A stretch of DNA of 11,242 nucleotides, taken from IMG/VR virus record IMGVR_UViG_2693429549_000013. One strand, given 5' to 3'. Made by a program: the position numbers and the translations under genes. Shown here one piece after another: positions 5,040 through 6,434 of the stretch. The notes beneath the pieces are model-generated. The model searched no databases and was not told the DNA's origin. It saw only the letters and a program-made list of their open reading frames with translations. Source of the stretch: a virus. Its lineage: Duplodnaviria > Heunggongvirae > Uroviricota > Caudoviricetes. The stretch's first letter is position 1. Each line of letters starts with the position of its first letter.

Positions 5040-5166
5040 ATGGCATTTAAACACTATGATGTTGTCAGGGCGGCGCCGCCGTCAGATCTTGCGGAAAAGC
5101 TGACACATAAACTGAAAGAGGGCTGGCAGCCGTTTGGTAGTCCGGTGGCCATAACCCCTTATACCC
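5040..5166 (+). pseudogene. 5' fragment (42 codons) of a nanS-p-like esterase gene, truncated by IS600
   Basis: Encodes MAFKHYDVVRAAPPSDLAEKLTHKLKEGWQPFGSPVAITPYTL, about 90% nucleotide-identical to the start of the intact gene at 8565. The reading frame runs into the IS600 end at 5167. Confidence 0.75.
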
Positions 5167-5209
5167 TGAGGTGTACTGGCAATAGCGGACACTACCATTT
5201 GTTCTTTTT

Positions 5210-6028
5210 TTAAGCAGCCATCTGATGATATTTTTCCCTGAAGGCTGCCGGGGAGATATTCCCCAGACGAGAGTGACGACGCTGACGATTGTAGAAAATC
5301 TCAATGTATTCCCGTATTACTGAGATGGCTTCATCCCGGTTATTAAAACGATAGTGGCTCAGGCTCTCATTTTTCAGCGTTCCCCAGAAGCTTTCCATCG
5401 GAGCGTTGTCGTAACAGTTACCTTTACGCGACATTGATGTTTTCAGACCAGACTGCTCCTGTATGACCCGGTAATCGTATGCGCAGTACTGTGAACCTCG
5501 ATCAGAGTGGTGGATTAGCCCGGCAGGTGGGCGCTGGCTCCTGAGCGCCATAAACAGGGCTTTACCTGTCAGCTCTTTTGTCATGCGCTCTCCCATGGCG
5601 TAGCCGACAATTTCGCACGTATAAACATCTTTGATGCCAGCGAGGTACAACCATCCCTCCTGTGTGGCAACATACGTCAGGTCCGCCACCCAGACCTGAT
5701 TTGGTGCTGTAGGAGCGAACGTCTGGTTCAGCAGATTTGGCGCAACTGGCAGATTGTGGTTCGAGTTCGTAGTCGCTCTGAACTTGCGTTTCTGCTTACA
5801 GCGTAGCCTTAGCTCCTTACGAAGACGTGCCAGTCGGTCACGACCAACGATGATGCCATTCTCTGCCAGCTCCGTCTGGAGCCGCCGGGTTCCATATGTT
5901 TCGCGAGTGCGGATATGTGCCACCTTAATCTCCAGTTTTAGCCGCTCATCACTTTGTTTTCTGTCTGAGGGTTCATGCTGTACCCAGTTGTAATAACCGC
6001 TCCTGGATACACCAAATACCTGACACAT
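5210..6028 (-). CDS. IS600 OrfB (DDE transposase catalytic domain; expressed as OrfAB fusion by -1 frameshift near 6108-6116)
   Basis: 272-aa ORF with IS3-family integrase-core features. The frame is open upstream of the first ATG into the OrfA overlap. Confidence 0.9.
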   Translation of the reverse strand: MCQVFGVSRSGYYNWVQHEPSDRKQSDERLKLEIKVAHIRTRETYGTRRLQTELAENGIIVGRDRLARLRKELRLRCKQKRKFRATTNSNHNLPVAPNLLNQTFAPTAPNQVWVADLTYVATQEGWLYLAGIKDVYTCEIVGYAMGERMTKELTGKALFMALRSQRPPAGLIHHSDRGSQYCAYDYRVIQEQSGLKTSMSRKGNCYDNAPMESFWGTLKNESLSHYRFNNRDEAISVIREYIEIFYNRQRRHSRLGNISPAAFREKYHQMAA

Positions 6029-6063
6029 CGCTTCAATGGGAAATTGTTGTCGCCATTGTTCGA

Positions 6064-6366
6064 TTAACGCGTATTTTTCAGCGACTCCTGTGCAAAATAC
6101 GCTGTTGCTTTTTTTAATATATCTCGCTCAAGGCGAGCTTCATTTAACGCCTTACGCAGTTGCAGAATTTCAGATTCCAGTTCAGCCACCGTGCGGGAAC
6201 CAGGAGTACCGAGCCCTTTTCTGGCGGCGGTAACCCATTGTCCTAAAGTGCCTTCAGGAAGAGATAATCGGGAAGCGCCTTCACTGATCGAAAGTTGATT
6301 TTCAAGAACCGTTCTGACAGCTTCGGCTTTGAACTCTTTAGAGTAACGTTGGGTTTTTCTGCTCAT
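6064..6366 (-). CDS. IS600 OrfA (helix-turn-helix transposase N-terminal protein)
   Basis: 100-aa ORF typical of IS3-family OrfA, with a leucine-zipper-like C-terminus. Confidence 0.9.
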   Translation of the reverse strand: MSRKTQRYSKEFKAEAVRTVLENQLSISEGASRLSLPEGTLGQWVTAARKGLGTPGSRTVAELESEILQLRKALNEARLERDILKKATAYFAQESLKNTR

Positions 6367-6434
6367 TATTAGCTCCTTCTGATGCCATTCTATTTCAGGA
6401 AGGAGTGTCCGTTAAACTCAGGCTACCTCAAAAA

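Follow-up and report, generated by a model that had tools for sequence, protein, structure and literature searches.

The defective Stx prophage of Shigella dysenteriae 1, on which McDonough and Butterton reportedly published in 1999, is said to be scarred by IS600 and to undergo tandem amplification and deletion. That system, cited in PMC7819885, would share with the locus described here an IS600 in a lambdoid late region and repeated late-region DNA; the present locus differs in having no stx, a single IS600 and no evidence of amplification. Five insertion sequences (IS) have expanded in all Shigella species, IS600 among them, and the Shigella reference chromosomes each carry 229-348 IS insertions (PMC7373316). 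Rearrangements in Shigella have been ascribed to recombination between IS copies (PMC8072062), and structural variation in Shigella sonnei is driven by IS-mediated homologous recombination (PMC7373316, PMC8072062, PMC12795559). Like the present locus, the scars of such recombination are found in decayed prophages and consist of a complete IS between unrelated flanks that lack a target-site duplication; the four additional bases and the breakpoint inside a gene require one extra, non-homologous step here.

The nearest relatives at the sequence level are two prophages of S. sonnei, referred to below as P1 and P2. P1 is a defective lambdoid prophage carrying a nanS-p fragment fused to IS600 (nanS-p'/IS600), present near yecE-like genes in strains Ss046 (CP000038) and 75/02 (CP019689; strain names from PMC5447701). 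P2 is a second prophage, located on the ompW side in strain 53G (HE616528), with the gene order antiterminator Q, 65-aa ORF, methyltransferase, three tRNAs, nanS-p, holin and IS600. The methyltransferase of 53G P2 is intact and single-copy, with no IS600 upstream of codon 65, and its IS600 copies are found in a DUF977 gene (in opposite orientation) and downstream of the lysis genes.

IS600 is also present in the same module, which includes nanS-p, a TerB-like gene and the tRNA region, in EHEC prophages of E. coli 05_3471, 03_3469 and OkiPb01696. These copies differ from the present one in occupying other sites, in retaining both halves of the target and in having perfect 3-bp duplications, and their distribution suggests that the EHEC-type late-region module tolerates or attracts IS600. 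In loci L021, L032 and L033 (OkiPb01696, 05_3471 and 03_3469, respectively), IS600 has inserted independently after the tRNAs, in nanS-p at 432 nt from its start, and in the TerB-like gene. The E. coli genome matches in which IS600 is close to nanS-p or the methyltransferase (H26, H27 and H32) were considered as counterparts and set aside as simple insertions elsewhere.

The DNA analysed here, hereafter the window, is the whole 11,242-nt stretch of IMG/VR record IMGVR_UViG_2693429549_000013. Mapping of mismatches against P1 (Ss046) and P2 (53G) revealed a mosaic, and the window is S. sonnei DNA that combines P1 with P2, IS600 forming the joint. Positions 1-1192 (+) are P1-type prophage DNA, identical to the Ss046 locus (L004) and approximately 9% diverged from 53G P2, and contain RusA (419-793, +; Pfam match) and the 5' part of antiterminator Q (790-1611, +; Pfam Antiterm match). 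They are followed by a 343-bp stretch common to P1 and P2 (1193-1535, +), with zero mismatches against L004 and the 53G P2 locus (L012), and then by a P2-identical patch within the P1 backbone (1536-3524, +), whose sole difference from 53G P2 is a private SNP at position 1654. The patch comprises the 3' end of Q, the 65-aa ORF (1836-2033, +), an intact methyltransferase and three tRNAs, and its last 69 bp (3456-3524, +), which are inside tRNA-Arg(TCT), are again common to P1 and P2. The P1-type late-region segment that follows (3525-5166, +) has zero mismatches against Ss046 P1 and encodes a 117-aa ORF (3643-3996, +), DUF3927 (4032-4163, +) and an IraM/PmrD-like ORF of 111 aa (4444-4779, -). 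Beyond IS600 and four A residues, the remainder is P2 late region (6435-11242, +), which is identical at 4808 of 4808 positions to 53G (HE616528; L012 7871-12678) and contains a 5'-truncated methyltransferase, three tRNAs, two STnc100 copies, an intact nanS-p and holin-region ORFs.

Two genes of this mosaic carry observations of their own. The Q of the window is 273 aa, compared with 284 aa in Ss046-type P1, the two genes being distinguished by an 8-bp indel at 1606-1613. The possibility that Q is a P1/P2 hybrid was dropped, as the protein is a very common allele (7505 blocks of the assembly collection) and is uninformative. A Pfam scan of the ORF at 4444-4779 gave no match at E<=0.001; the identical gene in S. 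sonnei loci has a precomputed Pfam PmrD match, and the RefSeq annotation beneath the E. coli matches includes 'anti-adapter protein IraM'.

The IS600 (IS3 family; 5167-6430, -) is complete at 1264 bp, with the ends TGAGGTGTACTGG... and ...GGCTACCTCA, terminal inverted repeats that both start with TGAGGT. It encodes orfA (6064-6366, -; Pfam HTH_Tnp_1) and orfB (5210-6028, -; Pfam HTH_21/rve), and has the slippery A-run expected for -1 frameshifting in IS600 (A7G, 6108-6114). Over its full length it is 99.5-100% identical to RefSeq copies annotated 'IS3-like element IS600 family transposase', and it is 100% identical to the downstream IS600 copy of 53G P2; by these comparisons it is an ordinary IS600, not an element of a novel type. 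It is flanked by the triplet CCC on the left and AAA on the right, confirming an earlier reading that no target-site duplication is present. This absence is informative because four control IS600 copies in E. coli or IMG/VR loci duplicate their target perfectly over 3 bp (GCA, GCC, CAG and CTG), and it indicates that the IS600 of the window is not at its primary insertion site, leaving its identity unaffected. Every IS600 copy in the S. sonnei prophage loci (L001-L004 and L011-L020) also lacks a duplication (GGA/AAA, AAC/GCC and CCC/CTA).

On its left side IS600 abuts a nanS-p' pseudogene fragment that comprises 42 codons and one further nucleotide (5040-5166, +). The fragment retains DUF1737 (Pfam match) alone of the nanS-p architecture and shares 91.6% identity with 8564-8694, where the intact 617-aa nanS-p (8565-10418, +) begins. 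The intact gene combines Pfam DUF1737, SASA and DUF6645 domains, an architecture that identifies it as a predicted nanS-p, the prophage 9-O-acetyl sialate esterase. The nanS-p homology of the fragment runs 3 nt into IS600 (TGA, to 5169), which is a coincidence. An ORF at 5025-5213 continues from nanS-p' into IS600, giving a 62-aa chimeric product that was found exactly in 76 blocks of the assembly collection, and all 24 of the 24 contigs read were of S. sonnei type. In searches with the 62-aa ORF and with nanS-p, every locus recovered was of the S. sonnei reference type, apart from a single draft scaffold.

The exact nanS-p'/IS600 junction is present in the complete genomes CP000038, CP019689, CP049169 and CP049175, as well as in many drafts, and the left junction of the window was therefore inherited. 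P1 loci encoding the 62-aa product match the window at approximately 99% over 1-1717 and 3243-6430, with one mismatch between 3456-6430 and Ss046-type P1. In the four complete-genome P1 loci, however, IS600 is followed by CTAATCAGC... and the genes of another prophage remnant, and neither nanS-p nor a methyltransferase is present to its right. Relatives thus share the left junction but have other DNA on the opposite side of IS600, which means that one IS600 copy has different right partners across strains. The triplets CCC and CTA in the reference strains indicate that the IS600 there was already at a recombinant junction without target-site duplication.

On its right side IS600 is followed by AAAA (6431-6434) and then by a 5'-truncated methyltransferase (6435-7299, +) that begins at codon 65. 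Position 6435 corresponds to 2378, the third base of codon 65 in the intact N6/N4 DNA methyltransferase of the patch (2184-3242, +), which has a full Pfam PF01555 match and a DPPY motif at residue 35. The truncated copy has lost the first 64 residues, including DPPY, and matches only positions 40-219 of the N6_N4_Mtase profile; the 305-aa ORF that contains it (6382-7299) begins within the IS600 end. Both nanS-p' and the truncated methyltransferase are pseudogenes, and an intact copy of each is present in the window. Sequence comparison thus bore out the placement of IS600 in the initial annotation, between nanS-p codon 42 on one side and AAAA with methyltransferase codon 65 on the other.

The right junction, IS600 followed by AAAA and codon 65, was absent from the GTDB species representatives, IMG/VR, the JGI metagenomes and those S. 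sonnei genomes that protein look-ups could reach, and neither junction was present in any of 5,426 complete E. coli genomes. The exact chimeric 305-aa methyltransferase ORF had no record in the assembly collection look-up, and the reciprocal junction, with the 5' part of the methyltransferase beside an IS600 end, was not found in the collections searched.

That no complete S. sonnei genome reached has this arrangement would be expected of an assembly mis-join through IS600, the methyltransferase/tRNA repeat or both, in which case the three pieces would not be contiguous in the chromosome. The repeats required are available, since 2378-3524 and 6435-7581 are identical (1147 bp) and the IS600 is identical to another copy in P2, and the sole similar record (L016) is itself a draft scaffold with single-N joins and implausible repeats. 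A mis-join, however, can only mis-pair existing flanks and not invent new ones, and codon 65 of the methyltransferase does not coincide with any repeat boundary in reference-type P1 or P2. As no genome searched has AAAA before GCAGTTC either, the sequence IS600-AAAA-codon 65 must exist in the reads, and assembly error cannot easily be the source of a breakpoint inside the methyltransferase and is the less likely explanation for it. The independent scaffold L016 also has the same switch at 3524/3525 with 100% identity, and one of its blocks begins 15 nt after the position corresponding to 6435. A mis-join is therefore considered unlikely, though it is the foremost of the alternatives.

L016 (FTVJ01000050.1, GCA_900158365.1) shares window 2339-5108 at 100% identity. 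Over positions 1-12678 it contains three methyltransferase copies, single-N joins and IS21-like filler, and IS21-like sequence cuts its two nanS-p' fragments at the point corresponding to window 5107. Either it is an artefact of scaffolding, or it hints at module amplification in a related strain; because of the single-N joins and implausible filler it was given little weight, and an amplification model draws no support from it.

The initial annotation overlooked that the first methyltransferase/tRNA copy is, according to the mismatch pattern, the P2-identical patch (1536-3524). Ss046 P1 is without window 1718-3242, that is, the methyltransferase module is missing, and its tRNA region differs from the window at many positions in 3243-3455. 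The two perfectly identical stretches that bound the patch, at 1193-1535 and 3456-3524, are likely its left and right crossover zones, respectively. A P2 segment between two such stretches is the signature of gene conversion or double crossover between prophages in one cell.

This pattern bears on a local tandem duplication of a late segment from a single prophage, bounded by methyltransferase codon 65 and nanS-p codon 42, in which IS600 would mark the joint and the copies would have diverged afterwards. The layout A-B-IS-B'-C, in which the B copies start and end at homologous points, is what such an event would give. The two copies are not alike over their whole length, however: the 5' part is 100% identical, whereas in the first copy the 3' part (3525-5166) is of P1 type, has 620 bp extra and is only 92-96% identical to the second copy. 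Furthermore, the nanS-p'/IS600 joint exists in reference genomes without P2 DNA to its right. A plain tandem duplication is therefore largely refuted by the mosaic of identities, and we regard it as improbable.

The four A residues at 6431-6434 are part of neither IS600 nor the methyltransferase. Across the breakpoint the sequence of the intact gene is ...GTCTGGC|GCAGTTC, so AAAA is foreign to it. All matches listed for the complete E. coli genomes begin at query base 5 and none reaches AAAA, and in IMG/VR the sequence AAAAGCAGTTCTGGCGGGT was found in 0 contigs compared with at least 120 for the intact TGGCGCAGTTCTGGCGGGT. A methyltransferase variant with AAAA before GCAGTTC was accordingly rejected, being absent from both the complete E. 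coli genomes and IMG/VR.

Among 10 other distinct IS600 left-end flanks from the fetched loci, one begins with AAAA, or indeed with A at all. This sole AAAA flank, AAAATTAAAGGG, was seen in eight S. sonnei genomes, at the IS600 copy inserted in the P2 DUF977 gene; without the insertion the gene reads GGGAAAAAATTAAAGGG, and AAAA at this site consists of the duplicated AAA and the base after it. To the right of AAAA, the window likewise continues as P2 DNA. In the initial annotation AAAA had been called unexplained; the observation that it is not methyltransferase sequence holds, and the DUF977 flank in P2 now provides a candidate source. Whether AAAA is a relic of the IS600 insertion site in the P2 DUF977 gene is roughly evenly balanced, because a four-base match across 10 flanks has a chance probability of approximately 4%, no microhomology was found at the breakpoints (AAAA|TTAAAGG versus GTCTGGC|GCAGTTC) and the two IS600 copies differ at SNP 6305.

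Position 6305 is the single site of IS600 that is informative as a tracer of recombination. Among otherwise near-identical copies, the window shares A at this site with the downstream P2 copy and the P1 copy of CP049169; G is present in the Ss046 and 75/02 P1 copies and in the DUF977 copies (7/7 full-length DUF977 copies compared). The A of the window argues mildly against a DUF977 copy as donor of the AAAA end, and the overall pattern of A and G is consistent with conversion between IS copies.

The DUF977 fragment of 53G P2 (L012 1201-2854) is inverted relative to the usual lambdoid orientation and adjoins the left end of IS600, indicating that P2 of the reference strains is itself rearranged at that IS600.

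A DUF977 origin of AAAA could also reflect direct transposition of IS600 from the DUF977 site into the methyltransferase, with AAAA carried along as the spacer of a circle and the other flank later swapped with the nanS-p' copy. Copy-out/paste-in elements join end-to-end with a few flank nucleotides between the ends (PMC7780238), and AAAA is the same as the flank of the DUF977 copy. Such spacers are normally removed at integration, however, the junction of the methyltransferase 5' part with IS600 that this course predicts was not found in the collections searched, and SNP 6305 is unlike that of the DUF977 copy. The circle-junction spacers of IS3-group elements are 3 bp, compared with the 4 nt of AAAA. 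Direct transposition is thus the least probable of the courses considered here, and very improbable.

There is also a slim chance that AAAA represents donor-flank nucleotides carried with IS600 by an aberrant IS3-family transposition, as opposed to a random illegitimate join. One route would be a copy-out circle-junction spacer left in place, and another a transposase nick in the donor flank, at a fixed distance of a few bases outside the left end, that became the endpoint of a rearrangement. Intramolecular replicative-type transposition from the DUF977 copy was rejected, as it predicts a 3-bp duplication derived from the methyltransferase and not AAAA.

The locus is probably the product of recombination at IS600 copies that joined P1 to P2, together with the copying of a P2 patch into P1. 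An early suggestion that this was not a simple insertion, and that IS-mediated recombination had joined two related prophage late regions, is thereby supported, the two flanks being P1 and P2. From the observed flank identities, patch boundaries and missing duplication we infer an order of events, a mechanism of recombination and an origin of AAAA. The IS600 would be the copy carried in the 5' end of nanS-p in the defective P1, whose right-hand partner was exchanged for a P2 late region starting inside the methyltransferase gene. The exchange was probably a homologous recombination in which the nanS-p' IS600 paired with another IS600 copy, one already lying next to AAAA and the truncated methyltransferase; a complete IS with unrelated flanks and no duplication is expected of homologous recombination between IS600 copies. 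An earlier non-homologous event, a deletion or an inversion, would have fused this partner to codon 65 of the methyltransferase and retained four bases of its previous flank, most likely the DUF977 site in P2. As the right junction was found nowhere else, the partner IS600 is hypothetical. Separately, approximately 2 kb of P2 (the 3' end of Q, the methyltransferase and the tRNAs) was probably copied into P1 between the shared identical stretches, which would account for the intact methyltransferase/tRNA set upstream of the truncated one.

P2 adjoins ompW (L015), and P1 with its neighbouring remnant adjoins yecE/cmoAB-like genes. If P1 and P2 have the same placement as in the reference strains, a joint of this kind would call for a very large duplication or additional inversions. 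If both prophages are oriented as in E. coli K-12, a joint with P1 on the left and P2 on the right would be either a duplication joint or the result of prior inversions.

The first tRNA cluster, tRNA-Met(CAT), tRNA-Arg(TCG) and tRNA-Arg(TCT) (3283-3532, +), is duplicated as a CAT, TCG and TCT triplet at 7340-7589 (+). The first tRNA of the corresponding cluster is annotated as tRNA-Ile by RefSeq in two E. coli prophages. Three copies of the STnc100 sRNA family (Rfam) are present at 4229-4418, 7666-7855 and 8133-8342, scoring 124-161 bits against a gathering score of 47, and each has a terminal CCTCTCCGGAGGGG hairpin with a T-run after it. These copies correspond to the direct repeats D2/D3/D5/D6, and P2 has two of them in tandem upstream of nanS-p.

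The phenomenon is already known, being routine IS-driven scrambling of Shigella prophage remnants, to which the present results make only small additions, namely a plausible source for AAAA and the recognition of the conversion patch, and they carry little weight beyond annotation and assembly quality control. For these purposes, neither nanS-p' nor the 5'-truncated methyltransferase should be given a functional annotation, and the 1.15-kb perfect repeat together with the IS makes this a locus where short-read assemblies break or mis-scaffold. The joint could serve as a lineage marker if it belongs to a large IS-bounded duplication or inversion. For the biology of S. sonnei, the locus shows the shuffling of modules between prophage remnants by way of IS600 and of short identical stretches in the Q gene and a tRNA gene.
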